NCBI GenBank assembly: GCA_039803205.1
Contig: JBDRYB010000001.1
Location: 331,413-395,412, forward strand
Length of the DNA: 64,000 bases
Direction of reading: 5' to 3'
Source: a candidate division WOR-3 bacterium
GTDB taxonomy: Bacteria; Hydrothermota; Hydrothermia; JBDRYB01
The position numbers and the translations under genes were made by a program. Shown here in pieces: positions 17,189 to 34,304 of the stretch; positions within the stretch are counted from its first letter, which is position 1; every line of letters starts with the position of its first letter. Below the pieces are notes generated by a model. That model had not been told where the DNA came from. It saw nothing but the letters and a program-made list of their open reading frames with translations, and searched no databases.

Positions 17189-18763
17189 TTACTCAATCAC
17201 CTTGAGCACTTTTGTTCCTCCTTGATACTTCAGCACCGCAAAGCAAACGCCCTTGGTTAGCTCAAGGCCACCGCGCCCTGGGTTGAATGTGTGGGCCCCT
17301 TGGGTGAGAACGCCGTTATACAGGTTCTGGATGAGCCTGCCTGAGGCGTCGTATAGAGTGAGAGAGATATGGAAAGTTGCTGGCATGAAAAGATAGATGC
17401 CTTTGCCCCTCGGCTCTAGGAGAATCTTCTCCTTCATGATATCTTCTTCCTTTTCCCCTTCATATAAAGGGCTACAGCCTTGCGTATTATTAGGATCATC
17501 TATAGCGAAGATCCGGCTACTATCGGGCATCGCGTCCTGAAGACCAAAAACTATCTCAATGCATCCATCGAGATCTATATCAGCCGCAAAGGGCGAGTGG
17601 ACATCTGTCGAGAAGCCCCCCATGCTCCAGAGTATAGAACCATCCTCTCCGTTGACACATATGAGGGTATTTGTGGGTAGGTCGTCCTGCGAGAGCATGA
17701 TCTCCAATTTCCCGCCATCATTTCCGTCCACATCCACTATGGCTCCTTGGCAGTGTATCCCGGCGGGGAAACCTGTCTTGACCCATTTTTGGGTTCCATC
17801 TGTTCCTCTAAGGCAATAGAGACTCGGGGCCATGGTTCCTATTACCACCTCTATCTGGCCATCAGCGTCAAGGTCTGCTACCCCAGGGGAAGAGTATATT
17901 ATCGCGCCTCCTGTAGAAAAGCTCCACTTAGTTCCCCCATCCGTTCCCGCGAAACAATATATCACTCCGTTTGTGGAAGCCGCAATGACCTCAGCCTTTC
18001 CATCCTGGTCGCAATCATATATGACCGGATAATTCGGGAGATCCCCCATTAAGCTTCCTATTCTCCTAGCCCATTTACGAGTCCCGTTAGAGCCTTCCAG
18101 ACAATAGAGCGTGTCATTGGCGGCTATGACCACATCCAGGTCCAGGTCACCATCGCAATCAGCGACCGCGGGCCCTGCTCGACAATACATGATGGAGGAA
18201 TTGTTCCATATGGGGGTTCCGTTGAGTCCTGAGAGGCAATATACTCCGTTCATGTATGTGCCAAAGAAGACCTCAAGCACTCCGTCTCCATCCAGATCAG
18301 CGGCATTGGGTGAAGCCATTGTGCCTGGCGCAAAGGACCATTTCTCAGAGCCGTCAGAACCTCTGAGGCAATAGAGGTTTTCTCCATAGTCAGAAACGAT
18401 GATCTCAACAGCTCCATCATTATCCACATCAGCAACAACAGGAGTGGAACGCACACTTGAGATGAAGTCCCGTGTCCACTTGCGGGTGCCGTCCAGCCCG
18501 CTGAGACAATAGAGCTTCGCGCGACGGACGCTGGATCCATAGCTTCCCATGATAACCTCTGGATACGGATCCGCATCAACATTTGCGGAGCTTCCGTATT
18601 GCCACTCCACCATGCCCGCTGAGTCCGTTGGCGCACTCCACTGTATTACAGGGCTGGTAATGGCTCCTTTCATGAGCTGCTGCCCAGTATGAGCAGGATC
18701 GCCCGCCCACATGGTCCAGGTCTGATAGGCCTGGCCTACGAACATAGTAACTGCAATAAACAT
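17189..18763 (-). CDS. Secreted FG-GAP/PQQ-like beta-propeller protein A with T9SS-like C-terminal domain
   Basis: Repeats ADxDGDGxxEV...YCLxGxDGxxKW; C-terminal LYDASGRLIQNLY...GVCFAVL...KVIE; SD GGAGGTG. Confidence 0.85.
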   Translation of the reverse strand: MFIAVTMFVGQAYQTWTMWAGDPAHTGQQLMKGAITSPVIQWSAPTDSAGMVEWQYGSSANVDADPYPEVIMGSYGSSVRRAKLYCLSGLDGTRKWTRDFISSVRSTPVVADVDNDGAVEIIVSDYGENLYCLRGSDGSEKWSFAPGTMASPNAADLDGDGVLEVFFGTYMNGVYCLSGLNGTPIWNNSSIMYCRAGPAVADCDGDLDLDVVIAANDTLYCLEGSNGTRKWARRIGSLMGDLPNYPVIYDCDQDGKAEVIAASTNGVIYCFAGTDGGTKWSFSTGGAIIYSSPGVADLDADGQIEVVIGTMAPSLYCLRGTDGTQKWVKTGFPAGIHCQGAIVDVDGNDGGKLEIMLSQDDLPTNTLICVNGEDGSILWSMGGFSTDVHSPFAADIDLDGCIEIVFGLQDAMPDSSRIFAIDDPNNTQGCSPLYEGEKEEDIMKEKILLEPRGKGIYLFMPATFHISLTLYDASGRLIQNLYNGVLTQGAHTFNPGRGGLELTKGVCFAVLKYQGGTKVLKVIE

Positions 18764-18805: not shown

Positions 18806-18839
18806 ATTATAACCGTGGATGTAATGCAGATGTAACGCA
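18806..18839 (-). promoter_or_regulatory. Promoter of propeller A: two 11-bp direct repeats, 6 bp, then TATAAT
   Basis: Minus strand TGCGTTACATC TGCATTACATC cacggt TATAAT. Confidence 0.7.
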
Positions 18840-18900
18840 AATTGCGTTGGTTCGTTGTCTTAACTTGATTTTGGCCATTTCTAACCCTTATAATTTTTCT

Positions 18901-20484
18901 ATGGGCGCAGACGAAATTGTAAGGGAAGCCATAATGAGGTTCCAGAAACTAGGTGCTTTGGAAAGATATATTGAGGAAATCAGGAAGGATAGTGGGATTC
19001 TTGCGGCACAAGTGGCTGAGGTTTATCTGGATACCGTAAGACATAGGCACGATATGGCTATTAGAAGAGGTAAAGCGCTCATTGCAAAGACCCATAATAG
19101 CCCGTGGGTGAGAGGGTATCTATTGATGCTACTAGGAGTGAACTACGGAAATATGGGAGAATTAGGCAAATCCGTCAATTGTTTTCAGCAGGCTCTGGGG
19201 ATCGCGGAATTCTTATTGGACCGCGATACCGCGCTCCAGGCCAAGGTTTATCTCGCGGCGAGCCATATTTTCAACTCCGAATACCGCGTTGCCTATAGGC
19301 TTCTTTCTTCTATCCTAAAGGATCTGCATAAGAGCTCCCCTCTATTTTACACTTGCTATTATTATTTTGGGATTTGTGCCCTAGCTACCGGAAACCTAGA
19401 AAAGGTAGCGAAGGCTTACGAGGTATATCTAGAAAGCCAAAAGGACAACATAAGAAGGGCTTACTTCCTGGAGATAATGGCTTTTGTTCTCAGAATAAGA
19501 GGGAAACTCGCTGAGGCCATGGAGACATTCGTTAATTCGGCAAAAGAGCATGTTGAACATGGTTCTGCCTACTCCGTGTATCCTATAGCCAAGGCCCTTG
19601 AGCTCTCCCGACTTGCTGGTTTTGAGCCTGTTCCCCGTGAGCTGTTAAAGAAGGCTCTAGATCTTGCCAGAAGGGGAGGTCTAGGCGAGCAGGCTGCGGC
19701 AGAGGAAATAGACGCGCTCCTCAAGGATGACGACTCCGAGGCCGCTGAGATGCTATACGATGCCGCGAATAACTATCTAAGAGCGCATCAGAACATAGAG
19801 GCCTTGTTTTCGGGCCTGACCGCGGCTTACCTGGCCTGGAAGACGGACAGCCCGGTATTCACTAAAGCCTTGAAGCTTATTGCCTCTCTCATTCCCCTGC
19901 ATCCGGGCTTAAGGAAAGACCCCCTCCTTGGGGATTTCATGTCCGAGGTGGAGCCATTTCTGAGAAAAGCCTTGAGACATGGCCAAGACAAAGATGGCAT
20001 AAAGGCGTATCTTATTGGCGAACTCAGGGTTATGGTAGATGGTAAAGAAGTAAATCTAAGGGGTTGGCGCAACAACAAGGCCATAAAGGGACTCATTTAT
20101 CTCCTCTTATCTTCAAAACACAGGATACCATCGGATCACCTTTTTTATCTGCTCTGGCCCAGGAGGGCATTAAACGAGAGGACGCGATATTACCTATATA
20201 ACGCAATAGCCGCCATAAGGAGAAACCTGGGCCGCCCCGAACTCCTCGTCAAAAAAAGAGACTTTTACCAGCTTGAAGGGGATGTCTGGACAGACTTGGG
20301 AGAACTGGAAAACCTCATAAGACTCGCTGACGCTACACGCGATCCTGCCGAGAGGGAGGAGTATCTCGCCAAAGCAAAAGAATTAGCAAGGGGCGATCTC
20401 CTTCCTGAATTCCCCTATGACAAACACATTGAGGAATACAGGTATTACTATGAGAGGATCAGGCAGAGGCTTGGCCTCCGATGA
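18901..20484 (+). CDS. TPR + SARP-family (wHTH, short BTAD) transcriptional regulator A
   Basis: Helical TPR-like N-terminus; IKAYLIGELRVMVDG...LFYLLWP...IRRNLG...VWTDLGELE...ARGDLLPE; TATAAT + 6 nt + ATG. Confidence 0.8.
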   Translation: MGADEIVREAIMRFQKLGALERYIEEIRKDSGILAAQVAEVYLDTVRHRHDMAIRRGKALIAKTHNSPWVRGYLLMLLGVNYGNMGELGKSVNCFQQALGIAEFLLDRDTALQAKVYLAASHIFNSEYRVAYRLLSSILKDLHKSSPLFYTCYYYFGICALATGNLEKVAKAYEVYLESQKDNIRRAYFLEIMAFVLRIRGKLAEAMETFVNSAKEHVEHGSAYSVYPIAKALELSRLAGFEPVPRELLKKALDLARRGGLGEQAAAEEIDALLKDDDSEAAEMLYDAANNYLRAHQNIEALFSGLTAAYLAWKTDSPVFTKALKLIASLIPLHPGLRKDPLLGDFMSEVEPFLRKALRHGQDKDGIKAYLIGELRVMVDGKEVNLRGWRNNKAIKGLIYLLLSSKHRIPSDHLFYLLWPRRALNERTRYYLYNAIAAIRRNLGRPELLVKKRDFYQLEGDVWTDLGELENLIRLADATRDPAEREEYLAKAKELARGDLLPEFPYDKHIEEYRYYYERIRQRLGLR

Positions 20485-20525
20485 TTTTGCCCCACCTTAA
20501 CGCGTAGCCTTAAAATTTTCAAACC

Positions 20526-21572
20526 TTGGGTATTCTCAGTCGGATTCGTTCCATTTTCAGGACGGAGGTCGCTCTGGATCTGGGGACAGCGCATACCCTC
20601 GTCTATGTAAAGGGGAAAGGCATAGTCATCCGGGAGCCATCGGTCGTCGCGGTTGACCTAACAACGGGAAAGCCAATAGCCATAGGCGCTGAGGCAAAAC
20701 TAATGCTCGGAAAGACCCACGAGACCATAATGGCGAAGCGGCCAATAAAGGATGGGGTCATAGAGAACCTCGATCTTGTGAACCTGATGATCTCCTCCCT
20801 CCTATCTAGAGTGATGAGGAACACGATCGCGAAACCCATACTCTATGTCGGGGTTCCCTCAGGCGCTAATGAGGTGGAGCTCAAGGCTGTCAGGGATGCT
20901 GGAGAGGCCGCTGGTGCGAGGGAGGTCTATCTGGTCGCTGAGCCGGTCGCGGCCGCTGTCGGAATGGACTTGCCGATCCACGACCCCACTGGGTACATGG
21001 TCGTTGATATTGGGGGAGGCACAACAGAAATAGCAGTTATATCCCTTGGTGGCATCGTAGCCCAGGCATCCATTCCCATAGCCGGGGACGAGATGGATCA
21101 GGCGATAATCAACTATATAAGGCGCAAATACACGATACTCATAGGCGAGCAGACAGCGGAGAAGATAAAGATAACCATAGGAAATGTTTATCCCACAGAG
21201 GAGGTGCTTGAGCCCATGGAGGTTCGGGGTCAGAGCCTCGTGAACAGCATGCCCCAGGTTGTTGAGATAACGCCCTCAGAGGTAAGAGAGGCCCTAAGGG
21301 AGCCGGTTTCCCAGATACTTGAGGCCATAAGAAGGGCATTTGAGGCCACGCCGCCGGATCTCATGGCGGACATAATAGAGCAAGGCATACACCTTACAGG
21401 CGGTGGCGCTCTCCTCAGGGGTATGGACCTCCTCATAAAAGAGGAGACCGGTCTTATGGTCAAGGTGGTCGAGAGGCCCCTTGAATGCGTGGCAATAGGG
21501 GTGGGAAAGATAATGGAGAATCCGAAAAAATACAGGAGCGTCATCCTCCCTTCCAGGAAACCAAGTAGATGA
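20526..21572 (+). CDS. mreB: Rod shape-determining protein MreB
   Basis: LDLGTA, VDIGGGTTE, LTGGGALL. Confidence 0.97.
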   Translation: MGILSRIRSIFRTEVALDLGTAHTLVYVKGKGIVIREPSVVAVDLTTGKPIAIGAEAKLMLGKTHETIMAKRPIKDGVIENLDLVNLMISSLLSRVMRNTIAKPILYVGVPSGANEVELKAVRDAGEAAGAREVYLVAEPVAAAVGMDLPIHDPTGYMVVDIGGGTTEIAVISLGGIVAQASIPIAGDEMDQAIINYIRRKYTILIGEQTAEKIKITIGNVYPTEEVLEPMEVRGQSLVNSMPQVVEITPSEVREALREPVSQILEAIRRAFEATPPDLMADIIEQGIHLTGGGALLRGMDLLIKEETGLMVKVVERPLECVAIGVGKIMENPKKYRSVILPSRKPSR

Positions 21573-21686
21573 AATGTTCCTACGATCTGCGAAGCACGGC
21601 TTTCGGTCTGAAGCCCGGAACCGGAGCGGTCCTTTGTTGTTGACCGCATCCATTCTGCCCCTTGAATTCACAACTGGCAAACGATC

Positions 21687-22385
21687 ATGAGGGACATTTA
21701 TCGCTTTCTCCTGGCCCTATTCGTGGCTGGGCTATTTCTGCTACCGTTTCCGCGCAAGCTAGTCCACAATACCTTGCTGGCAACGCTATATGTGCCTGTG
21801 CTACGGGCTGAGGCCTTTATATTGGACCTTTTTCACCTGAAGTCTGAGAGGGATTACCTTCTCGCCGAGAACGCTCGGCTTTCGGCAGAGCTGGGTAAGA
21901 GATACATTCTATCTGATGAAGGGGGCGATATAGCGAGGCCTCTTAGGTTTGATCCCCCTGACAATCCGGAGAGGATAATCGTGGATGCTGGAAGGAACAA
22001 GGGCCTAAAACCCGGGGATGTCCTAATGAGCGGTGGGGCTCTTGCTGGCAGGATCATCGCGGTTGAGGCCAACACATCCACACTCCTAACCCCGTTTTCT
22101 CCGGATTTTATGGCTGGCGTTCTGGACACCAGAACCATGATCCACGGTGTCCTCGTTGGGGGAACTAGCCCAAAGGTTGATTACATACCCAGCTGGGAGG
22201 ATGTGAAGGCTGGGGATACCCTCGTTACCTCTGGACTTGCTGGGTTTCTGCCCCCTGGCGTCTTGGTTGGGGTTGTTGAGAATGTCTACAGGACTGACAA
22301 ACCATTCCTTGAGGTCAGGGTAAAATTGTTTTATCAGCCGCAGAAGATCAGGGTCTTTACAATAGCCAGGGGAGGCTCGGGATGA
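21687..22385 (+). CDS. mreC: Rod shape-determining protein MreC
   Basis: AENARL coiled coil, GDTLVTSGL; synteny. Confidence 0.9.
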   Translation: MRDIYRFLLALFVAGLFLLPFPRKLVHNTLLATLYVPVLRAEAFILDLFHLKSERDYLLAENARLSAELGKRYILSDEGGDIARPLRFDPPDNPERIIVDAGRNKGLKPGDVLMSGGALAGRIIAVEANTSTLLTPFSPDFMAGVLDTRTMIHGVLVGGTSPKVDYIPSWEDVKAGDTLVTSGLAGFLPPGVLVGVVENVYRTDKPFLEVRVKLFYQPQKIRVFTIARGGSG

Positions 22386-22816
22386 GAGGGTGGCTCCTCT
22401 GGCTCTACGCGGGCCTTGCAGTCATGTTCGCTGTGATATTCACAAGGATAAGGTTTTCCGGTTTTCCGGAGGCCTCCGTGTCGCTTTTCGCGGCCGCATC
22501 AATGAGATCGCCCTACCCGTTTTCCCTGATCCTGGGCATCGTCCTTGGGCTCCTTACAGAGGGGCTTCATCCTTCGGAACCCTGGGTTACTCCCCTCCTT
22601 TACATCCTTCTTGCCAGCGCTAGCCGCTACGCGAGGGACCAGATGAACCTCCGGGGTTGGCTCCTCGGCCTCTATTTCCTTTTCTGGGGAATAGCCTTTA
22701 GGGTCCTCCCTCCCATTTTTCACGGACAGACAGCGGGCTTTCTTGATGCGGCAGTCGGTTCAGCTCTGACCGCTGTTCTCGCTTATCTCCTTTATCTGCC
22801 ATGGAAAGAAGAATGA
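22382..22816 (+). CDS. mreD: Probable MreD
   Basis: Hydrophobic 144-aa protein between mreC and mrdA. Confidence 0.7.
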   Translation: MRGWLLWLYAGLAVMFAVIFTRIRFSGFPEASVSLFAAASMRSPYPFSLILGIVLGLLTEGLHPSEPWVTPLLYILLASASRYARDQMNLRGWLLGLYFLFWGIAFRVLPPIFHGQTAGFLDAAVGSALTAVLAYLLYLPWKEE

Positions 22817-24495
22817 TCTTGATTGTTGGCTTCTTCGGCCTCGCGCTCGCTGGCGCCCTCAGCAGGGCATTTTTCATGCAGGTCCTCAAGGGCGGTGAGT
22901 TCAGGATGCAGGCTGAGGCAAACTACCTCAGAAAGGTTCCGATCCCGCCGATAAGGGGCAGAATAATGGACAGGAACGGGCTTTTGCTCGCTGGTTGGGA
23001 GCCCCGGTTCATGGCAGTGGCACTATTAGGTGAGGGCGGCCTAGCGGGAGATGAGCTCGAGAAGCTCAGGCTCACCATAGGCGCAGAAAGCCTATCCGTG
23101 AAAAAGAGCTATCTCGGCTACTCCATTCTGGCAAAGGACATCCCATATGAGAAGGCCCTGGGCGTCCTGGAGCGCTCAGAGGACTTCGGTTGGCTGCTCA
23201 TGCTACCCTGCTTCTCGAGGACATACCCTTATAGAGGCCCGCTTTCATCGGTTATAGGTTATGTTGACGCGGATGGGGTTGGAAAGGCGGGAATTGAGAG
23301 GTCTTTTAATGAATACTTGGCTGGCACTCCAGGGGTCAAATACCTCATGGTTGACGCGAGGGGAAGGGTGGTGAAGGAGGACATATACCCAGAGGTTGAA
23401 CCAGCCCAAGGAAAGGACATAACCCTCACGGTTGACGAGCGGTTCCAGGCCGCGGCAGATACCCTTTTCGGGCCATATAGGTCAGGAGCCGCTGTTGTCA
23501 TGAACATAAAGACCGGGGAGATACTCGTTCTCTACACTAAACCGTATGTTGATTCCTGGACAATGGTCTACGGCACATCCGAGGAGAAATCCGCGGCCCT
23601 CTCAGCCCCAGGCTCCCCTCTCCTGAACAGGGCTGTCTCCGGCCTCTACCCGCCGGGTTCAACATTCAAGCCGGTGGTCGCGCTCTGTGGGCTTTCCTCC
23701 GGCGCGATAACCCCTGCCAGCGTTTTTTGCTGTGCTGGCGGCATGCAGATGGGAAACCGGTTTTTCAAGTGCACGGGGTTCCACGGGTGCCTTGACCTCA
23801 TCCACGCGATAGAGCATTCCTGCAATACATATTTCTATTCTGTTGGGATTCGCATGGGGCTCCCCACATTTCTCAGCGAGATCGATCGGATGGGCTTTCT
23901 CAAGAGGAGCTACGATCTCGGGATAGGGGGCGAGAAACCTGCTTTGATCCCGAGCCTGGATTACTACCGAAAGAATTTCGGAAAACAGCTCGGCGGGGTC
24001 ACCCTCAATCTCTCCATAGGCCAAGGAGAACTCCTCCTTACTCCCCTTCACATGGCTCTCGTCGCGGCATTGGTCGCCAGGGGGGAAATGCCCTTGCCCC
24101 ACCTTTTGATGAGGGTCGGGGATGAGAGATATGTTCCCCCTGAGACTCTGAGAATACCATTATCAGATAAGGACAGGGAGGCAGTGAAGAAGGGAATGCT
24201 TCTCGTTGTGGAATCAGGAACCGCGAGGAGCTGCCGGCTCCCTGGATTCAAGTTCGGCGGCAAGACGGGAACAGCGCAGAACCCTCACGGCCAGGACCAT
24301 TCCCTCTTCATATTTTTCGCGCCATACGATGACCCTGAGATAGCTGGCGCTGTGGTTGTTGAGCAGGGAGGATTCGGGGCCAAGGCGGCCGCGCCCATAG
24401 CGCGAGAGCTCATAAGGAGATACTTTGGCCTACCACCGGCTCCGCTCTTCGTGGTTAAGAAACCCTCGGAGGATCGGAAAGAGGAGATAGAATGA
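22801..24495 (+). CDS. mrdA: Penicillin-binding protein 2
   Basis: PGSTFK (SxxK), SCN, KTGTAQ. Confidence 0.93.
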   Translation: MERRMILIVGFFGLALAGALSRAFFMQVLKGGEFRMQAEANYLRKVPIPPIRGRIMDRNGLLLAGWEPRFMAVALLGEGGLAGDELEKLRLTIGAESLSVKKSYLGYSILAKDIPYEKALGVLERSEDFGWLLMLPCFSRTYPYRGPLSSVIGYVDADGVGKAGIERSFNEYLAGTPGVKYLMVDARGRVVKEDIYPEVEPAQGKDITLTVDERFQAAADTLFGPYRSGAAVVMNIKTGEILVLYTKPYVDSWTMVYGTSEEKSAALSAPGSPLLNRAVSGLYPPGSTFKPVVALCGLSSGAITPASVFCCAGGMQMGNRFFKCTGFHGCLDLIHAIEHSCNTYFYSVGIRMGLPTFLSEIDRMGFLKRSYDLGIGGEKPALIPSLDYYRKNFGKQLGGVTLNLSIGQGELLLTPLHMALVAALVARGEMPLPHLLMRVGDERYVPPETLRIPLSDKDREAVKKGMLLVVESGTARSCRLPGFKFGGKTGTAQNPHGQDHSLFIFFAPYDDPEIAGAVVVEQGGFGAKAAAPIARELIRRYFGLPPAPLFVVKKPSEDRKEEIE

Positions 24496-25670
24496 GAAGA
24501 TTCCTGCCCCTCATTTTCGCTGGAGCCATATCTGCCTTCTCCTTGGTTGAGCTGTTTTCGGTTGGGAGCGCGCACGCGCTCCGGCAGCTCATCTGGATAG
24601 GCCTAGGAGGGCTCAGCTTTCTGCTCTTTTACAAAGCGATATCTCCCCTAACCCTTCGCCGCGGAGCCGAGATAATCTATTGGGTCTCAGCTATACTTCT
24701 GGTGGCGGTTCTGGTATTCGGTGGCCCGGGCGCGAGGAGGTGGTTTTCGTTCGGAGTCATGAAGTTTCAGCCATCCGAGCTATCCAAGCTTGCGGTTCTC
24801 CTCGTTCTCTCAAAGGCCTTGGAGGAAAGCCCCGTGAGGCCAGAAAGGGTTTTCGTTGCCCTCGGATATTCCCTGTTTGTTTTCATTCTCATATTCATCG
24901 AGCCAGACCTCGCTACAGCAGGAGCGGTTTTCGCTTTAACGACGAGCCTTCTTTTGGTCTCAGGAACCCCCTCCCACATCCTCATGCTCATATACGCGCC
25001 CATTTTCGCCGCGGCCTCATCCTTCTGGCTCTGGAGCTTCATAGGGCTTGTTCTCGTTGTTTTCATTCTCTCAAGGCTCATGAAAAGGGGCTGGGGATAC
25101 ACCCTCGCACTAACGAGCATGGTCATAGGTGTTGGGTTGGCTACCCCGTTGGTCTGGAACGGCGCGCTAAAGGAATACCAACGCAAAAGGATAATCTCTT
25201 TCGTGGCGCCAAAGGCGCAGAGCGCCGCCGCGGGGTGGCAAGCGCTTCAGGCAAGGGTCGCAATAGGCTCCGGCGGGCTTTGGGGAAGGGGATACAGAGA
25301 GGGAACCCAGAAGGGGCTTGATTTCCTTCCAGAGGCTCACACTGACTTTATTTTCGCGGCAATAGGAGAGGAATTCGGGTTTCTGGGCTGCGCTTTGATC
25401 GTTGGGCTTTTTGCCGCTCTCCTCTGGAGCCTAGTCCGGGCCGCAACATTCACGGAGGATCGGTATCTCAGGAACCTCGGGGTTGGAGCGATGACCATAA
25501 TATTTTATCACGCGTGCTTTAACCTGCTCTCTGTCCTTGGCCTCTTTCCGGTCGCTGGCCTCCCGTTGCCATTTGCCAGCTACGGCGGAAGCCACATCCT
25601 GATGGAGTTCTCTCTGCTGGGAATCGTTGCGGCCTCGGTGGAGGAGGAAATGAGGAGAAGGGCATATTAG
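24492..25670 (+). CDS. rodA: SEDS glycosyltransferase RodA
   Basis: QPSELSK, FLPEAHTDFIF, LPFASYGGS. Confidence 0.93.
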   Translation: MRRFLPLIFAGAISAFSLVELFSVGSAHALRQLIWIGLGGLSFLLFYKAISPLTLRRGAEIIYWVSAILLVAVLVFGGPGARRWFSFGVMKFQPSELSKLAVLLVLSKALEESPVRPERVFVALGYSLFVFILIFIEPDLATAGAVFALTTSLLLVSGTPSHILMLIYAPIFAAASSFWLWSFIGLVLVVFILSRLMKRGWGYTLALTSMVIGVGLATPLVWNGALKEYQRKRIISFVAPKAQSAAAGWQALQARVAIGSGGLWGRGYREGTQKGLDFLPEAHTDFIFAAIGEEFGFLGCALIVGLFAALLWSLVRAATFTEDRYLRNLGVGAMTIIFYHACFNLLSVLGLFPVAGLPLPFASYGGSHILMEFSLLGIVAASVEEEMRRRAY

Positions 25671-25741
25671 CGATCGCGGCGGTGAAAATGGGCGAATCGT
25701 TTTTGAAACCGGAGGACTTTGGCTCTTATAATATCCTTCTT

Positions 25742-25831
25742 GGAGAGGTGGCCGAGCGGTTGAAGGCGGCGGCTTGCTAAGCCGTTGTAGGGAGTATATC
25801 CCTACCGCGGGTTCGAATCCCGCCCTCTCCG
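25742..25831 (+). tRNA. tRNA-Ser(GCT)
   Basis: Cloverleaf with long variable arm; anticodon loop TTGCTAA; G discriminator; no CCA. Confidence 0.95.
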
Positions 25832-25866
25832 TTGAGAATCATCTACAGAATTACAAAAACACGAAA

Positions 25867-27432
25867 CTATTCTTTCCCGTAGATTTTCTTCTTCAGTCTT
25901 TCGTAATATTGCCTGTATTCGTCAATGTAGCGGTCGTAGGGGAATTCGGGAAGCAGATCGCCATTAGCGAGTTCCCGAGCCCTGGCAAGGTATTCCTCTT
26001 TTTCGGTAGGATCACGGGTAGCGTCAGCTAGCCTCAGAAGGTTCTCCAGTTCTCCAAGGTCTGTCCAGACATCCTCAAGCTGGTAGAAGTCCCGGTGTTT
26101 GACAAGGAGCTCACGCCTAATGAGATGGGTTCTTATCGTGTTTATGGCAGTATAAAGAAGGCACCTAGATTTTTGGGTATACTTGCGTCTTGGCCAAAGA
26201 AGATAGAAAAGGTGATCGTAGGGTATCCTATGCTTGGGCGAAAGAAGGAGATAGATCAATCCGAGTATAGCCTTGTTATTCCGCCAGGCCTTCAGTCTAA
26301 TATCTTTGTTGTCCACAGTTATCTTGGTTTCTCCTATGAGATACGCTTTTATCCCCGATTTTGGCTCTGTTTCCCTTTGGTTTACGAGGGGTTCTATTTG
26401 TATGAGAAAGTCTCGGAGGAAAGGGTCATGCTTGAGGCCTGGATGCAAGGAAGCCAAAGGGTTAAGAAATTTCAAGGCTTGAGGGAGGGTGGGGCCGTTT
26501 GATCGCCAGGCCAAAAAAGCTGAGGTCAATCCAGCCAAAAACGCCTCTAATGGCTGGTAAGCCCGATAATAGTTCTGAGCGGCCTCAAAGAGCATACAAG
26601 CTGTTTCATCTTCTTCCTGCAAAAGAAGGGCCTTTATTTCCTGGGCTGCGGCCTGCTCGCCCCAGCTTCCAGACCTTGCCAGAGATAGGCACTTCTTAAC
26701 AGTATCCTGAGGGGGTGCATCAAACCCGGATAACCTCGAAAGATTCATGGCCTTGGCACAAGGAAAGGCAGAGTAGGCTGATCCAAGATCCAAAAAGGCT
26801 TGGATTGAACCCAAATAGCTTTCCATTGATTCATCACATCTTCCCATCAACCTCAGGGCAAGACCTTTCATTTCCAACACGCCCGCCAGAAATAGAGGCC
26901 TCCTTCTTAACCTCAAAAGCGATTCCAGGATTTTATTGGCTTGTTCCGGCATTCCACGGATTATGTGTAGGACTGCGAACATGTACAAAGCATCAGGACG
27001 TTCCTCTTCTTTCAGAAATTTCTTTATATCACAGTAAAGCGTTTCGTATTCGGCCTTAAACAACCTGATGGATAGGAGGGACATTTTCGCACTGGTTGCG
27101 GCTTTCCTATGTCCCAAAAGTTCCGCGGCCTCAAGGAACTTGATGAAAAAGCTCTCTGCTCTGTCCATTTCTCCTAACATCCTGTAGGCCATCCCCATAT
27201 TGTCAAACAAATACAAGGCTATCTCGGGTTTATCCGAGACTTTCGCCAACAGCCTCTTTCCCTTTCTCACAACCTCCGCGGATTTAGCCCTGTAAAAAGC
27301 CACCGATACCTCCAGGATACCGGCGGCCAGGGGGTCCTGTGCTTTCAATGTCTCAATATACCTAGCGACCTCAGAAAGCCTACCCATCTTCAGTTTCTTT
27401 ATGCCTTCCTTTATCCTATCCGCGGTGTCCAT
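25867..27432 (-). CDS. TPR + SARP-family regulator B (paralog of A)
   Basis: C-terminal ~160 aa closely match regulator A; TAGACT + 6 nt + ATG. Confidence 0.8.
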   Translation of the reverse strand: MDTADRIKEGIKKLKMGRLSEVARYIETLKAQDPLAAGILEVSVAFYRAKSAEVVRKGKRLLAKVSDKPEIALYLFDNMGMAYRMLGEMDRAESFFIKFLEAAELLGHRKAATSAKMSLLSIRLFKAEYETLYCDIKKFLKEEERPDALYMFAVLHIIRGMPEQANKILESLLRLRRRPLFLAGVLEMKGLALRLMGRCDESMESYLGSIQAFLDLGSAYSAFPCAKAMNLSRLSGFDAPPQDTVKKCLSLARSGSWGEQAAAQEIKALLLQEEDETACMLFEAAQNYYRAYQPLEAFLAGLTSAFLAWRSNGPTLPQALKFLNPLASLHPGLKHDPFLRDFLIQIEPLVNQRETEPKSGIKAYLIGETKITVDNKDIRLKAWRNNKAILGLIYLLLSPKHRIPYDHLFYLLWPRRKYTQKSRCLLYTAINTIRTHLIRRELLVKHRDFYQLEDVWTDLGELENLLRLADATRDPTEKEEYLARARELANGDLLPEFPYDRYIDEYRQYYERLKKKIYGKE

Positions 27433-27481
27433 TCTGAAAGTCTAAAGATTTTAGCCGATCAAATTCAAGTCTTTCAAGCAC

Positions 27482-27526
27482 TTCCTCAGATATGCCTCAG
27501 ATATGTCTCAGATATGTTCTTAGACT
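27482..27526 (+). promoter_or_regulatory. Promoter of propeller B: three 11-bp direct repeats, 6 bp, then TAGACT
   Basis: TTCCTCAGATA TGCCTCAGATA TGTCTCAGATA tgttct TAGACT. Confidence 0.75.
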
Positions 27527-27564: not shown

Positions 27565-29091
27565 ATGTCTAGCTTGCTTATAGAAATCATGCTCGTAAGT
27601 CAGATCTATGGAAACTGGCCCATGTGGGGAGGCACGCCCACCCACGAATCCGTCCAGCTCATGAAAGGAGCCATAACAAGTCCTGTGATAAAGTGGAGGG
27701 TTGCAACTGAATACATGGTTGAATTGCAATTCTCAGCCATAGCTGATGTGGATGGCGATGGACATGTGGAGGTGGTGATAAGCTCTGGCGACGGGGCCTG
27801 TTGCCTCCGCGGCTCAGACGGAACCCAGAAGTGGGCTTTAACGATTGGTGGGTGGTCCTCTCCCGCGTTAGCTGATGTGGATGGCGATGGACAGATGGAG
27901 GTCGTGATAGGAAGTCTTGACAACAAGGTCTATTGCCTCCGCGGCTCAAACGGGACCCAAAAGTGGGCCTTCACGACGGGATACTCTGTGATTTCCTCCC
28001 CCGCAATAGCTGATTGCGATGGCGACGGCCAGATGGAGGTCGTGATAGGAAGTCTTGACAACAAGGTCTATTGCCTCCGGGGCTCAGACGGGACCCAGAA
28101 GTGGGCCTTCACGACGGGAGACTTAGTGTGGTCCTCCCCAGCCATAGCTGATGTGGATGGCGATGGACAGATGGAGGTCGTGATAGGAAGTCTTGACAAC
28201 AAGGTCTATTGCCTCCGGGGCTCAGACGGGACCCAGAAGTGGGCGTTCACGACATGGGACGATGTGCTGTCCTCTCCAGCCATAGCTGATGTGGATGGCG
28301 ATGGACAGATGGAGGTGGTTATAGGCTCATATGACCACAATGTCTATTGCCTCCGGGGCTCAGACGGGACCCAGAAGTGGGCCTTCACGACGGGAGACTT
28401 AGTGTGGTCCTCCCCAGCCATAGCTGATGTGGATGGCGATGGACAGATGGAGGTGGTTATAGGCTCAGATGATAAGAAGGTCTATTGCCTCCGTGGCTCA
28501 AACGGAACCCAGAAGTGGGCCGCGTCCTTCCCTTCTTCTGTTCACCTTCCCGGAGCGCTAGCGGATGTTGATGGTGATGGTAAGTTTGAGTTCCTGGTTT
28601 CGCAGCTGGGAGTTAAACCTAACATTGACAACCTCTATTGCCTGAACGCTGAGGATGGCTCTGTGGCCTGGAATATACCCCTGGCCTTTGATGTCCACTC
28701 TCCGTTTGCTGGGGACATAGACAGAGACGGGTGCATAGAGATAATCACGGGTACAAATGAGGCTGATGCCTCGGGTTACCGGATCTTCGCCTTAGATGAC
28801 CCTGCCAACGCTACGGGCTGTGGCCCTGTATATGAGGACATAGAGGAGGATCACGGCTCTGGTCCCATTGATTTCAGATCCATTGATCAGGGCCTTTACC
28901 TTTTCATGCCCTGTGAGGCCCAGGTTTCCCTCTCCCTCTACGACGCTCAGGGCAGGCTCGTTCAGAACCTTTATGAAGGCCTCCTGAGCCCCGGCGGCCA
29001 CACCTTCATCCCAAAAACAGAAACAAAGGGCGTTTATCTCGCGGTTCTAAGGTATCAGGGAGGAATCCAGACTGTAAAGCTCATAAGATAA
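27565..29091 (+). CDS. Secreted FG-GAP/PQQ-like beta-propeller protein B with T9SS-like C-terminal domain
   Basis: Near-identical 46-aa repeats; SD AAGGAG before ATG 27565. Confidence 0.85.
   Translation: MSSLLIEIMLVSQIYGNWPMWGGTPTHESVQLMKGAITSPVIKWRVATEYMVELQFSAIADVDGDGHVEVVISSGDGACCLRGSDGTQKWALTIGGWSSPALADVDGDGQMEVVIGSLDNKVYCLRGSNGTQKWAFTTGYSVISSPAIADCDGDGQMEVVIGSLDNKVYCLRGSDGTQKWAFTTGDLVWSSPAIADVDGDGQMEVVIGSLDNKVYCLRGSDGTQKWAFTTWDDVLSSPAIADVDGDGQMEVVIGSYDHNVYCLRGSDGTQKWAFTTGDLVWSSPAIADVDGDGQMEVVIGSDDKKVYCLRGSNGTQKWAASFPSSVHLPGALADVDGDGKFEFLVSQLGVKPNIDNLYCLNAEDGSVAWNIPLAFDVHSPFAGDIDRDGCIEIITGTNEADASGYRIFALDDPANATGCGPVYEDIEEDHGSGPIDFRSIDQGLYLFMPCEAQVSLSLYDAQGRLVQNLYEGLLSPGGHTFIPKTETKGVYLAVLRYQGGIQTVKLIR
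27741..28560 (+). repeat. Intragenic tandem repeat, about 6 units, 138-bp period
   Basis: agctgat...gatgg anchor at 27741, 27870, 28008, 28146, 28284, 28422. Confidence 0.9.
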
Positions 29092-29157: not shown

Positions 29158-31011
29158 TTATTTGCCCTGGAATCGCGGCGGCCACCCCAATCTTGATTCC
29201 ATCTTCAGCTCATTCTTGAACTGCTCCGTAAAATCTTCGTAAAGCTTCTTGGCCCTTTCTGGCATTTTAAGCCGAATTAGGGCTTTCATGGCCATCTCGC
29301 AAGCATCCTCAGAAAAAGGCCTGATAGAAAGCGCTCTTTCGGCAAACCTCAGAGCCTGCTCTGGTTCCTCATCAAGCGAGTATTCGGCCATTCTGGTATA
29401 AACGAGACTGGTAAGTTCCCTCACCTCATCCCTAATATCCTCCAGGAAACCCGGCCTCCAACCCTCCAAAAAATCTCCCCTTATCAGGCTAAGGGCTTTC
29501 TCGTAAATAGGCCTTGCCTCGCTGGTAGGGGCCGAAGCCTCTACTGCCTTGGCCGTGTTCACGAGGTTTCTGAGTTCATCAAGGTCTGTCCGTATTTCAC
29601 AGCCTATCCACGCGCTGGTATGGGATTTATGAGGCTTTATAGCTACGCCCTGGTTCCTGAGGATGGCCCTGGCAAGAGCCGTGAACTTGTAGTAGTTCCT
29701 TCTCGCCCTTTCCAAAGGAAGGCGTGGCCAGAACTCCTGTATGATCCTCTCCCTTGTCAACTCGCCTTTGGCATGAAGGGCAAAGAAAACGAGAACCTCG
29801 CCTGGTCTCCCCTTCTCAAGATGAAAGCGTCCGCGAGGGGTCTCAATCGCGGGTTGTCCCATAACCAAAAGCTTCATCCTGGCCTGTTTGGAACGAGGGC
29901 TCAGCTTCTCAGCTATTTCTCTCAATTCCATTTTATCCGGGAAAACCGAAAGAGCTAGCATGAAGGGTGTAGGCACGGCGTGGGCTATGTAGGAGATGTA
30001 ACCCCAAAGTTCGTGTTCTTTTGTTAGGTTCATCAATGTTTTAATATCCTCCAGGGAATCGCTTTCCAGACCTAATTTGTTCTTGACCGCTATCTTTGCC
30101 CATTTGGCCCAAAGCATGGCCACCCCAAAACCACGGGTCCTCGCCTCAGCTTCTATCTCTTCTATCCTCATCAACGAATCGCCGTTTTGAGGCAAAACAG
30201 ACTCTTTTATAGCCTTTATCTCAAGCGTTGTTTTTAGTCTTCCTACCCTCGCGGCCGAGTTCTCCCCGAGCTCCAGATATAGATTTGCTCTATCAATGTC
30301 CCCCTCAGTTGCGAAGACGATCCCGAGGGACGCAAGGCAGGTAGAAAGCTCCATGGCGGCACCGTGGGCCTTCCTAACCTCCTCTAATGCTTGATTGATG
30401 TGTCGCTTAGCCCTTTCGTATTCGCCCATGCAGATATAACAGAATCCGAGGATATCGTTTTTCACGGCCTCAATCGGAGGAGTATCCTTGGGGCTGTTCG
30501 TGATGAGCTCCACGGTTTCGCGAAAACGCCCTGTCCCGGCCAGCGCCTCTGCCTTCAAGAGCATAGCTGTGGGATCCGTCAGCTTTAGCCCCTCAAGCAG
30601 TTCCAGGGAGTACTCCGGCTCCCCGCGGACCAGGGCCAAGCGCGCCTTGCTCACAAGAGCCACATCTCTCCACTCCATATCCTCAATCTCTTTCACTAAT
30701 CTGGACGCCTCTTTCAGCCTCCCTTGTTCAAGGAGTATCTCTATGTAACCCCGAAGGAACCAAACATATGGCGTTATATCCCCCTTCTTTATGGAAGCAC
30801 TCTTGAGCTTCTGGATGCCCCTCTTGAGAACCTCGGATTCTCCTATTGGGGCGAAGATGTGGGACATGAATATTAAGGCCTGAGCCGCTCCACGCGGGTC
30901 ATCTTCCCCCAGGCAATCGTTAAAGAGGCTTGCGGCAAAGGAGAGAGCTTCATCCGTTTCGCCCCCTTTCCAGAGGAGCCTAAACTTCTGGGCTTTTTGT
31001 CTGTCTAACAT
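29158..31011 (-). CDS. TPR + SARP-family regulator C with full BTAD
   Basis: LLVMGQPAI...TRERIIQEFWP...TDLDEL...ALSLIRGDFLEG...ALSIRPFSEDACEMAMKA; start reassigned to ATG 31011 (TATAAT + 6 nt). Confidence 0.8.
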   Translation of the reverse strand: MLDRQKAQKFRLLWKGGETDEALSFAASLFNDCLGEDDPRGAAQALIFMSHIFAPIGESEVLKRGIQKLKSASIKKGDITPYVWFLRGYIEILLEQGRLKEASRLVKEIEDMEWRDVALVSKARLALVRGEPEYSLELLEGLKLTDPTAMLLKAEALAGTGRFRETVELITNSPKDTPPIEAVKNDILGFCYICMGEYERAKRHINQALEEVRKAHGAAMELSTCLASLGIVFATEGDIDRANLYLELGENSAARVGRLKTTLEIKAIKESVLPQNGDSLMRIEEIEAEARTRGFGVAMLWAKWAKIAVKNKLGLESDSLEDIKTLMNLTKEHELWGYISYIAHAVPTPFMLALSVFPDKMELREIAEKLSPRSKQARMKLLVMGQPAIETPRGRFHLEKGRPGEVLVFFALHAKGELTRERIIQEFWPRLPLERARRNYYKFTALARAILRNQGVAIKPHKSHTSAWIGCEIRTDLDELRNLVNTAKAVEASAPTSEARPIYEKALSLIRGDFLEGWRPGFLEDIRDEVRELTSLVYTRMAEYSLDEEPEQALRFAERALSIRPFSEDACEMAMKALIRLKMPERAKKLYEDFTEQFKNELKMESRLGWPPRFQGK

Positions 31012-31039
31012 GCTTAAATTATAGAGCTCCCGGGTTTCG

Positions 31040-31080
31040 GGAAACATTTCTGGAAAGCTTCCATTACAAAATTTAGACCT
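31040..31080 (+). promoter_or_regulatory. Promoter of propeller C (motif shared with 34263-34304)
   Basis: GGAAACATTTctGGAAAGCTTCCATTaCAAAATTTA. Confidence 0.65.
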
Positions 31081-32727: not shown

Positions 32728-34263
32728 ATGACTTGCCTACCCGGACCTGTTTTTCTTTTAAATATGGTTCTGTGGGCCAAGGCCTTCGGCGGTTCCGGAG
32801 GAGAAAGTGCCTTCTCGTCGGCCCTAATCTCAAACGGGAAAATCCTCATCGCCGGATCAACCACCAGCTTTGGGCTCAACTACCCTGATTTTCTCTTAAT
32901 CATGCTTCAGCCTGATGGCTCTGTTTCCTGGGCAAAGACCTACGCGGGGAGCATGTATGATTACCCATATTCCGTGATCCCAAACCCATACTCCGGTGGT
33001 TTCACTATAGCGGGCTGTATGAATTTCCGAGGGAGGGGATATGACGACATTTGCGTTATGGATCTCTTACCTGATGGATCTGTCAATTGGGAAAGGGTAT
33101 TCTGGGGCTCAGATCACGATGTGGCTCGTGCCGTGGTTCGGTCCGCTGATGGAGGGTTCCTGATCGGCGGAATGACCAGAAATTTCCTCGCGAGGAGCTA
33201 TGACCTGGTTATATTGAAACTCTCATCTGATGCCCAACTCCTATGGAGCAGAATACTCCGCGGGATTGGGTTTAGCGATGACCGCATATATTCCCTCATT
33301 CCAACATCTGACAGTGGGGTCATTGCAGTGGGGTGGGGTTCCAACGGTGCGGTCGGCGGATATGACATTATCGTATTGAAGATCGCGCAGAATGGCTCCA
33401 TGGTGTGGGGAAAGTATATAGGAACCCCTGGGTTTGACTACGGGTGGTCTGGCGTAAAAACCGACGATGGTGGCTTGATGCTCCTTGCTTCAACCGACGG
33501 TTCCGGGGCTGGGGGCACGGATATCTTGATCCTGAAGCTCTCCCCTGATGGTTCTCCTGAATGGGCCAAGACAATTGGGGGTCCAGCAAACGATTACGGT
33601 TGGAGTATGATCCGGACCAACGACAGCGGATACGCCATTATTGGCCAGACCGAGAGTTTTGGGGCCGGAGGCGCTGATCTTTTTCTGCTTAAGCTGGGGC
33701 CGGATCTTTCTTTGGCTTGGGCCAGCACCTACGGCACTTCAAGGAGAGATGTTGGGAGCTCTCTTGTCCAGCTTCCTGACGAGAGCCTAGTGCTTTTCGC
33801 TACTACAGACATAGGAAACTACAACCATGATTATCTGGTAATGAGGGTTGAGCCGTCAGGAGGCTATCCAGGGTGTCTAAGCCCCTGCACTCCTACCACA
33901 TCTTATGCGAGCCTGGGCGTGTCGCCAATTTCGCCAGATAGCCTTCAGAGCTTCACCCCCAATGTCCTGGATACTCTGCCAGCAGTAACAGATCAAAACC
34001 CCTCGGTTACCAATGTCTGCGAGCCAGTTTATGAGGAAATCAATGAGACTCAAAGTGATCCGGGAATCCCAATGGTGTGCCTTTCGTTGTCAGGAGGGAT
34101 CCTCATAAGATCATACCTTGAGACTGATATAAGTATTTATTCCTCTGATGGCAGACTGAGCTACTCAGGGAACCTCAAAAAAGGCGAAAGCCGAATCTCG
34201 CTCGGAAAAGGCGTTTATTTCTGGAGAGCAGGGGTTTACAGGGGTAAGGCTGTTGTATGGTAG
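32728..34263 (+). CDS. Secreted beta-propeller repeat protein (WxKTYGG...DGG...G.T.SFGAG type) with T9SS-like C-terminal domain
   Basis: Repeats such as WAKTIGGPANDYGWSMIRTNDSGYAIIGQTESFGAG; C-terminal IYSSDGRL...GVYFW...KAVVW; start uncertain. Confidence 0.75.
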   Translation: MTCLPGPVFLLNMVLWAKAFGGSGGESAFSSALISNGKILIAGSTTSFGLNYPDFLLIMLQPDGSVSWAKTYAGSMYDYPYSVIPNPYSGGFTIAGCMNFRGRGYDDICVMDLLPDGSVNWERVFWGSDHDVARAVVRSADGGFLIGGMTRNFLARSYDLVILKLSSDAQLLWSRILRGIGFSDDRIYSLIPTSDSGVIAVGWGSNGAVGGYDIIVLKIAQNGSMVWGKYIGTPGFDYGWSGVKTDDGGLMLLASTDGSGAGGTDILILKLSPDGSPEWAKTIGGPANDYGWSMIRTNDSGYAIIGQTESFGAGGADLFLLKLGPDLSLAWASTYGTSRRDVGSSLVQLPDESLVLFATTDIGNYNHDYLVMRVEPSGGYPGCLSPCTPTTSYASLGVSPISPDSLQSFTPNVLDTLPAVTDQNPSVTNVCEPVYEEINETQSDPGIPMVCLSLSGGILIRSYLETDISIYSSDGRLSYSGNLKKGESRISLGKGVYFWRAGVYRGKAVVW

Positions 34264-34304
34264 GAAACATTTTGGGGAACATTCCATTTTAAAATTTAAA
34301 ACCT
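34263..34304 (+). promoter_or_regulatory. Promoter of propeller D (copy of the C promoter motif)
   Basis: GGAAACATTTtgGGGAACATTCCATTtTAAAATTTA. Confidence 0.65.

Follow-up and report, generated by a model that had tools for sequence, protein, structure and literature searches.

The window analysed here is a 64,000-nucleotide stretch of the genome of a candidate division WOR-3 bacterium (assembly GCA_039803205.1, contig JBDRYB010000001.1, positions 331,413 to 395,412, forward strand). It harbors two related regulator genes, referred to as regulators A and B, each of which faces a divergently oriented gene for a beta-propeller protein across a promoter with 11-bp direct repeats. Positions below are those of the window unless a contig is named, and residue numbers are those of regulator B. 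The features of the two loci are as follows.

17189 to 18763, minus strand: target A, a beta-propeller protein (FG-GAP/PQQ-like) of 524 residues with a hydrophobic N-terminus and a C-terminal tail resembling those known from type IX secretion systems (T9SS)
18806 to 18811, minus strand: -10-like box of target A, TATAAT, by sequence match
18818 to 18839, minus strand: operator A, two 11-bp copies, TGCGTTACATC at 18839-18829 followed by TGCATTACATC at 18828-18818
18865 to 18894, plus strand: putative regulator A promoter, consensus-type (TTGATT-18-TATAAT), by consensus match only
18901 to 20484, plus strand: regulator A, 527 residues, with a predicted TPR solenoid, OmpR-type winged helix and first three BTAD helices
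20068 to 20073, plus strand: the counterparts of 384-385 in regulator A, where helix alpha1 starts; they covary with repeat positions 2 and 4
20188 to 20214, plus strand: regulator A recognition helix, equivalent to 424-432, which tracks positions 5, 6 and 8
25867 to 27432, minus strand: regulator B, 521 residues, with the same predicted architecture as regulator A
26137 to 26163, minus strand: regulator B recognition helix, residues 424-432; residue 428 is aligned with AfsR T88
26278 to 26283, minus strand: regulator B residues 384-385, in the region of AfsR S46/Q48, with a register uncertain by up to two residues
27448 to 27477, minus strand: putative regulator B promoter, consensus-type (TTGAAA-18-TAAAAT), by consensus match only
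27482 to 27514, plus strand: operator B, three 11-mers ending 6 nt before the -10-like box
27521 to 27526, plus strand: -10-like box of target B, TAGACT (4/6), by sequence match
27565 to 29091, plus strand: target B, an FG-GAP beta-propeller protein of 508 residues, counted from the ATG behind AGGAG, with a T9SS type A sorting tail

The repeats at promoters A and B were as a preliminary description of this DNA had written them, with 11-bp copies, a gap of 6 nt at both promoters, and TATAAT or TAGACT as the -10-like box. Each operator was located between the regulator gene and the divergent beta-propeller gene, whose product carries a hydrophobic N-terminus and a T9SS-like tail, and the regulators' own consensus-type promoters lay on the strand opposite to the operators. 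Against TIGR04183, with a cut-off of 23 bits, the tail of target B scored 28.6 bits and that of target A 17.7 bits. The consensus earlier offered for both operators fits A and B only, but that of the whole family is broader, with mostly AG at positions 7-8. The same description had placed the largest difference between the C-terminal domains of regulators A and B (47% identical overall) in the recognition region, and the alignment agreed: two of ten residues were identical in block 417-426, as against five to ten of ten in the other full blocks.

The genome (G000; 2.32 Mb, 96% complete) encoded 19 full-length paralogs, including regulators A and B, together with one remnant and two longer relatives. 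Almost all paralogs adjoined a secreted-protein gene. Named homologs belonged to candidate division WOR-3. Strong family matches were present in three of 41 related genomes, all of one genus; across the phylum, 46 of 272 genomes matched at an E value of 1e-8, and below 1e-30 only three genomes of one genus were left.

To score the repeats, at least seven of nine matches at period 11 were required, with a gap of 6 nt before a TA-hexamer. This arrangement, which the preliminary description had expected at homologous loci, was detected at 15 of the 19 paralog loci, as against a mean of 0.11 and a maximum of 2 in 300 shuffled sets, and periods 8-10 and 12-15 gave no signal at these loci. The four failing loci comprised two without a divergent target, one with a damaged -10 box and one with a 7-nt gap. 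Among 1242 upstream regions of long open reading frames (ORFs), 30 passed the same test, and most of these belonged to targets of the regulators. The bare pattern of a repeat and a -10-like hexamer was found genome-wide 46 times at period 11, 44 times at period 12, 21 times at period 10 and 24 times at period 13. Since the bare pattern is this common, its location beside the regulators is significant rather than the pattern itself, and its use as a genome-wide detector was rejected.

For comparison across lineages, loci were collected from three genomes and from 64 metagenome loci, giving 76 regulators with upstream DNA. Seventeen were dropped because they had no divergent target, a contig end or no repeat, or belonged to the chimeric pair L037/L042. 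The remaining 59 were reduced to 52 regulator-repeat pairs at 95% identity, which formed 32 groups at 55% identity of the TPR part; the frameshifted gene of L047 was read with X at the break. In the 52 pairs, the gap to the -10 box was 6 nt in 45, 7 nt in five and 8 nt in two, under a scoring that mildly favoured 6 nt. At each of positions 2-8, 45-50 pairs had matching copies, but at position 11 only 12 did, and copies within one operator often differed by one or two bases. A -35 match of at least 4/6 was found in one of the 52 targets and in 42 of the 52 regulators' own promoters, the latter count being inflated by maximisation over many positions.

L037 and L042 have nearly identical promoters and 5' gene halves and are both frameshifted near codon 148. 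Over the DNA-binding region they are 64-70% identical, and position 4 of their site suits one of them, position 8 the other. The pair would represent either recombination between paralogs or a chimeric assembly.

Correlation of helix residues with repeat bases across homologous loci had been proposed as a check, and it was positive. The repeats were aligned in two registers, a strict one, in which the repeat ends 6 nt before the -10 box (four -10 calls being corrected by hand), and an AG-anchored one with six further hand shifts. Of 509 nine-residue windows, the recognition helix (424-432) was the one that best tracked operator similarity in all four settings. As a pre-specified window, this helix had a partial r of 0.36-0.37 (p = 0.002) once TPR identity and the remaining C-terminus had been controlled for. 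Segment 382-390, at the start of helix alpha1, ranked second or third in the 32-group settings (r 0.32-0.36). The covariation is thus concentrated in the two segments that touch DNA in AfsR. The operator adjoins the TPR-coding end of the regulator gene, yet it follows a helix encoded about 1.2 kb away.

Among single columns of the strict register, residue 384 with position 2 (z 9.4) and residue 385 with position 4 (z 9.3) cleared the family-wise threshold of 99%. In that register, and where the copies agree, R384 was accompanied by G2 in 23 of 27 rows and other residues in none of 24, while R385 was accompanied by G4 in all 13 rows and other residues in one of 37. These two were the strongest single-residue links, followed by those of residues 428, 424 and 431 with positions 5, 6 and 8. 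K428 occurred with C5 in six of eight rows and R428 with G5 in three of three; E424 occurred with C6 in all eight rows and K or R at 424 with G6 in all seven; D431 occurred with A8 in six of six. The preliminary description had seated the covariation in the recognition helix. That helix does track the repeat, but the strongest single links lie at 384 and 385, where A and B are identical. Links of W425 with G4 and of residue 432 with position 3 were considered and set aside, as the rule tests gave them no support, and A389 with T3 was one-sided only.

Independent pairs were counted on a tree built without both segments. For R384 and G2 there were seven such pairs, with 6.6 concordant and none opposite (p 0.016). 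When one group at a time was left out, the rules for residues 384, 385, 424 and 431 predicted better than the majority base in all four settings (424 weakly so in the AG-anchored register), an optimistic result, since these data had also served to select the columns. Five loci were held out and their sites assigned solely by position; there the rules predicted 20 of 22 bases correctly, whereas the majority base scored 12. L029 has a close relative among the training loci, and with it set aside the count was 17 of 18, at a TPR identity to the training set of 36-52%. Taken from these alignments, the five residues likely form a readable protein-DNA code.

Several results weigh against this reading and its extension to the mechanism. 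The four -10 calls and the six register shifts were set by hand. The recognition helix reached the family-wise 95% level in one of the four settings (r 0.35-0.41 against thresholds of 0.33-0.48), and the alpha1 window was found in the scan rather than pre-specified. In the AG-anchored register, column 385 passed the 95% level and 384 just missed it, while column 234, in the TPR part, also passed and nearly equalled 385. The rules other than that of R384 rest on one to four independent pairs each, none opposite, which is too few for a sign test, so only R384 with G2 has enough. The link of residue 428 to position 5 beat the majority base in three leave-one-group-out settings and failed in one. 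Residue 432, the equivalent of the base-reading R92 of AfsR, was no reliable predictor of position 3, and regulators A and B themselves break the position-4 rule, having N385 with G/A and C, not T. Finally, AfsR activation needs the C-terminal domain of the RNA polymerase alpha subunit (alphaCTD; PMC10936776), and the acidic AfsR contacts E68, D71, E76 and E77 are replaced here by H, Y and R/K.

The model of regulator B (predicted local distance difference test score, pLDDT, 94) consists of TPR and SARP parts only, with no nucleotide-binding (NOD) domain as in STAND proteins and MalT. In structure searches, residues 354-521 superimposed on AfsR 18-186 (Z 15.6, root-mean-square deviation 3.0, 162 residues), and the C-terminal part matched EmbR (Z 15.5). 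AfsR was also matched at an E value of 6e-28 by a regulator profile bridged through distant relatives. The C-terminal part is accordingly predicted by the model to be an OmpR-type winged helix followed by BTAD helices 1-3. Plain searches were less informative: the family profile alone retrieved only CarR (E 0.38) among solved structures, and sequence searches of solved structures with the B C-terminus or the family profile gave no SARP, with one match to AfsR through its TPR part only. Foldseek with the full regulator B model returned TPR proteins only, among the matches listed, and a genome-contig scan turned up no relative. Modelled from its single sequence, the C-terminal domain reached a pLDDT of only 55.7, and this poor model was not used.

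Regulators A and B end after BTAD helix 3, and Pfam BTAD was not matched. All 27 clusters with E values below 1e-30 end within 10 residues past the match, and 10 distinct distant WOR-3 relatives extend 71-95 residues past it (one more locus gave no match). The N-terminal 350 residues form a predicted TPR solenoid like those of MalT domain III (Z 22.6) and of the RRNPP sensors Rap (Z 22.2), AimR (Z 17.9) and NprR. The regulators differ from these proteins in having no ATPase domain, no LuxR or XRE helix-turn-helix and no Asn among the residues conserved at 85% or more. Such a TPR likeness is common and shows no ligand. The C-terminal TPR half (residues 187-347) contains the invariant polar and aromatic residues E187, R194, Y288, E296, D336 and F342, and the N-terminal half varies; these residues possibly mark a pocket common to the family or a substitute for the missing BTAD helices.

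AfsR of Streptomyces coelicolor (PDB 8HVR, 8JKE) and EmbR (2FEZ) have the same order of an OmpR-type winged helix and BTAD helices. The afs box consists of two 11-bp repeats that span -40 to -19 and are contacted over their first 8 bp (PMC10936776), and the promoter has its -35 element at -38 to -33 and a 20-bp spacer (PMC11301090). The -10 box would then start at -12, leaving a gap of 6 nt, as here. AfsR sites thus share with the WOR-3 sites the two 11-bp repeats, the eight conserved base pairs, the end 6 nt before -10 and the overlap with a poor -35 element. Moreover, AfsR T88, which aligns with residue 428, reads position 5, and residue 428 tracks position 5. The N-terminus of AfsR alpha1 makes backbone contacts only, whereas in WOR-3 it carries the strongest base covariation. 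In AfsR, the SARP part is N-terminal and an ATPase domain is present; in WOR-3, the TPR solenoid comes first, the SARP part follows at residues 354-521, and an ATPase domain is absent.

The WOR-3 BTAD ends at about AfsR residue 186, so that the AfsR sigma4 pocket (L211-R252) and alphaCTD interface (R240-L263), both beyond that residue (PMC10936776), have no counterpart. The regulators would therefore be without the AfsR alphaCTD-binding surface and most of the sigma4 contact. Equivalents of the AfsR polymerase contacts R59, E68, D71, E76, E77 and R173 were mostly S, H, Y, R, R/K and Y. Most DNA-contact residues are conserved among Streptomyces SARPs (PMC10936776), whereas the 19 paralogs of this single 2.3-Mb genome vary in them, and the targets are secreted propeller proteins rather than antibiotic clusters. 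The kinship with SARPs suggested by the preliminary description thus holds for fold and for site geometry, with 11-bp direct repeats, a fixed -10 distance and a poor -35 element, but the reversed domain order and the BTAD cut after helix 3 set the regulators apart from ordinary SARPs. They would work like SARPs and depart from them in domain order, BTAD completeness and polymerase-contact residues, which makes them a variant of SARPs. OmpR and PhoB boxes are likewise bound by tandem winged helices at an 11-bp period near the -35 region. The WOR-3 regulators differ from OmpR and PhoB in having no receiver domain, in keeping BTAD helices 1-3, and in having many private sites instead of one global box. 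A literature search that covered few subscription papers listed none that treats SARP-like regulators in WOR-3, a BTAD cut short or a code of this kind, and a word search of the WOR-3 isolate paper PMC12285271 gave no match.

With repeats in constant phase, 19 distinct sites for 19 paralogs, a truncated BTAD and residue-base covariation, we consider SARP-type activation with a private site per paralog to be quite probable. Each regulator likely binds its own 11-bp repeat as a head-to-tail pair that replaces the missing -35 box, and the bound regulator would then activate the secreted-protein genes next to it, as a SARP does. Five residues are predicted to set which repeat is read: arginines 384 and 385, at the start of helix alpha1, would read G at positions 2 and 4, and residues 428, 424 and 431 of helix alpha3 would read positions 5, 6 and 8. 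Polymerase would be recruited without BTAD helices 4-7, which AfsR uses for alphaCTD and much of sigma4; the task would then fall to the winged helix, to BTAD helix 3 or to the C-terminal TPR half, which is conserved. Least securely, the divergent TPR domain may give each paralog its own signal to sense. An ancestor with TPR and a full SARP part likely gave rise to the family within this genus-level lineage, and the family would then have expanded together with its target cassettes. More tentatively, and with rather more doubt than assent, the system can be envisaged as a modular winged-helix code with two reading heads (alpha1 arginines for positions 2 and 4, alpha3 for positions 5, 6 and 8) in about 30 near-orthogonal lineages, with sigma70 activation lacking the BTAD surface that SARPs need and 19 cassettes switched singly by TPR-sensed signals.

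A genome scan with the 19 sites yielded 30 perfect double sites, 27 of them with a -10-like box. Seventeen of the 27 had defined the sites; the other ten were second promoters in the same cluster or distant promoters, all before long ORFs and at least eight with a secreted-type tail. Secondary promoters at C1:156354, C1:153079, C6:27618 and C14:46978 repeat the site of the local regulator. Paralog C22:26696 has no neighbouring target and carries a repeat beside its own -35 box, and three distant promoters carry its repeat with a 6-nt gap. In genomes G001 and G002, all three matches to its site had a 6-nt gap and lay before secreted-type genes. Most of its kin (L003, L021, L049, L055, L060 and L067) also have the repeat by their own -35 (a single copy in L021). 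These arrangements suggest that the clade may be an autoregulated, trans-acting member of the family. In G000 and L055, the regulator of this clade lies directly behind another paralog.

The 2.3-Mb genome contained at least 206 ORFs of 250 residues or more with a T9SS-like tail. The filter of repeat and -10 box was passed by 23 of the 206, so the family would control a minority of the secretome; the filter misses some known cases such as B. SprA_N, the T9SS component for which a search was made, had one match above cut-off (C15:33994-35016).

The preliminary description had called the operator-activator pairs orthogonal. All 19 sites indeed differ over positions 2-8, but of 171 site pairs 10 differ by one base and 38 by two per half-site, and the site of B differs by a single base from that of C22:26696 and from that of C3:57811. 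Orthogonality is thus likely for most pairs and no more than possible for some. The paralogs might also bind their repeats and cross-read one another's, forming an overlapping network in place of private channels. This is somewhat unlikely, though it is compatible with SARP-type activation. The differences of one or two bases between copies of one operator make a one-base tolerance plausible, whereas the absence of identical sites, the reuse of the local site at secondary cluster promoters, and the double weight of a one-base difference in a two-copy site favour separate channels. Shared descent, block duplication or gene conversion of cassettes, rather than contacts, might also produce the covariation. 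The tree has a star-like shape in which 18 of 49 inner branches are open, independent pairs are few for most rules, and conversion does occur: two paralogs share a tail of 209 nt at 97%, and L037 and L042 combine near-identical promoters with different C-termini. Such an origin nevertheless appears improbable, as the signal lies in the two AfsR DNA-touching segments and survives control for the TPR part and the remaining C-terminus, the tree shows 12 changes of R384 and 11 of G2 but not one opposite pair, and held-out regulators of low TPR identity obey the rules. Moreover, the pairings of Arg or Lys with G and of Asp or Glu with C are chemically ordinary.

The position of the repeats, at that of a -35 region, would also suit repressors that cover this region and are released by a ligand. 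The regulators have no BTAD part bearing the alphaCTD contacts of AfsR, and in one clade the repeats lie by the regulator's own -35 with no -10 box following, which could be autorepression. A usable -35 match in only one of 52 targets would leave little to repress, however, and the 6-nt spacing of 45 pairs is needless for a steric block; by eye, several repeat-free secreted-protein genes show TTGAC-type -35 boxes. We regard repression as slightly more improbable still than shared descent. That the repeats are slippage products or phase-variation units with no protein bound is barely credible: three copies at B and the bare pattern at other periods genome-wide would fit, but at regulator loci only period 11 scores, the copies retain positions 2-8 but drift apart at 9-11, the same 8 bp are found again in kin from other genomes, and the repeat bases follow protein residues.

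Some further features were found beside these systems. At C3:57811-58282 of G000, a regulator with a damaged -10 box stands with a gene remnant, and 12 kb away, at C3:69945-70451, a nearly identical intact promoter and propeller gene adjoin a regulator remnant; we read the two places as a recent duplication or inversion that separated regulator from target. For the paralog C4:122779 (minus strand), and also at L062 and L068, the first target is a conserved ORF of 139 residues, not a propeller protein. Between the 3' ends of regulators A and B, at 20526-25832, lies an ordinary mreB-mreC-mreD-pbp2-rodA block with a tRNA-Ser gene (mreB identified by Pfam, the others named from sequence), which was not counted as part of the system; 41 nt separate the regulator A stop codon from the mreB start. 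The downstream neighbours are mreB for A and tRNA-Ser for B, and the search for signalling-peptide genes covered ORFs of at least 60 residues. The window also contained a longer relative:

29158 to 31047, minus strand: regulator C, with TPR, winged helix and complete BTAD (Pfam BTAD 43.5 bits)

Regulator C, a protein at C2:136596 of G000, and WOR-3 relatives of 600-1100 residues share with the family a TPR part before a C-terminal winged helix and BTAD, and regulator C is likewise divergent from a secreted propeller gene. They differ in their complete BTAD and usually have one to four matches per genome. A candidate repeat for regulator C has period 12, resembles GGAAACATT and, in the 12-bp frame, is followed after 3 nt by a -10-like box. 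It was found at three places of the genome (window positions 31040-31060 and 34263-34283, and C6:49653), and loci L124, L128 and L129 are also listed under regulator C. Gene and site were both present in G001, and neither was found in G002 (98% complete).

Residue-base rules for OmpR and SARP winged helices are hard to read, because relatives mostly keep their contact residues, as shown for Streptomyces SARPs (PMC10936776). The 52 natural regulator-site pairs described here vary on one scaffold and give testable single-residue predictions, and they supply a collection of candidate orthogonal activators. If a SARP-like protein activates without the alphaCTD and sigma4 pocket, it would reveal the polymerase contacts that are enough for such promoters. 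For WOR-3, the system illustrates how a very large secretome may in part be switched unit by unit.

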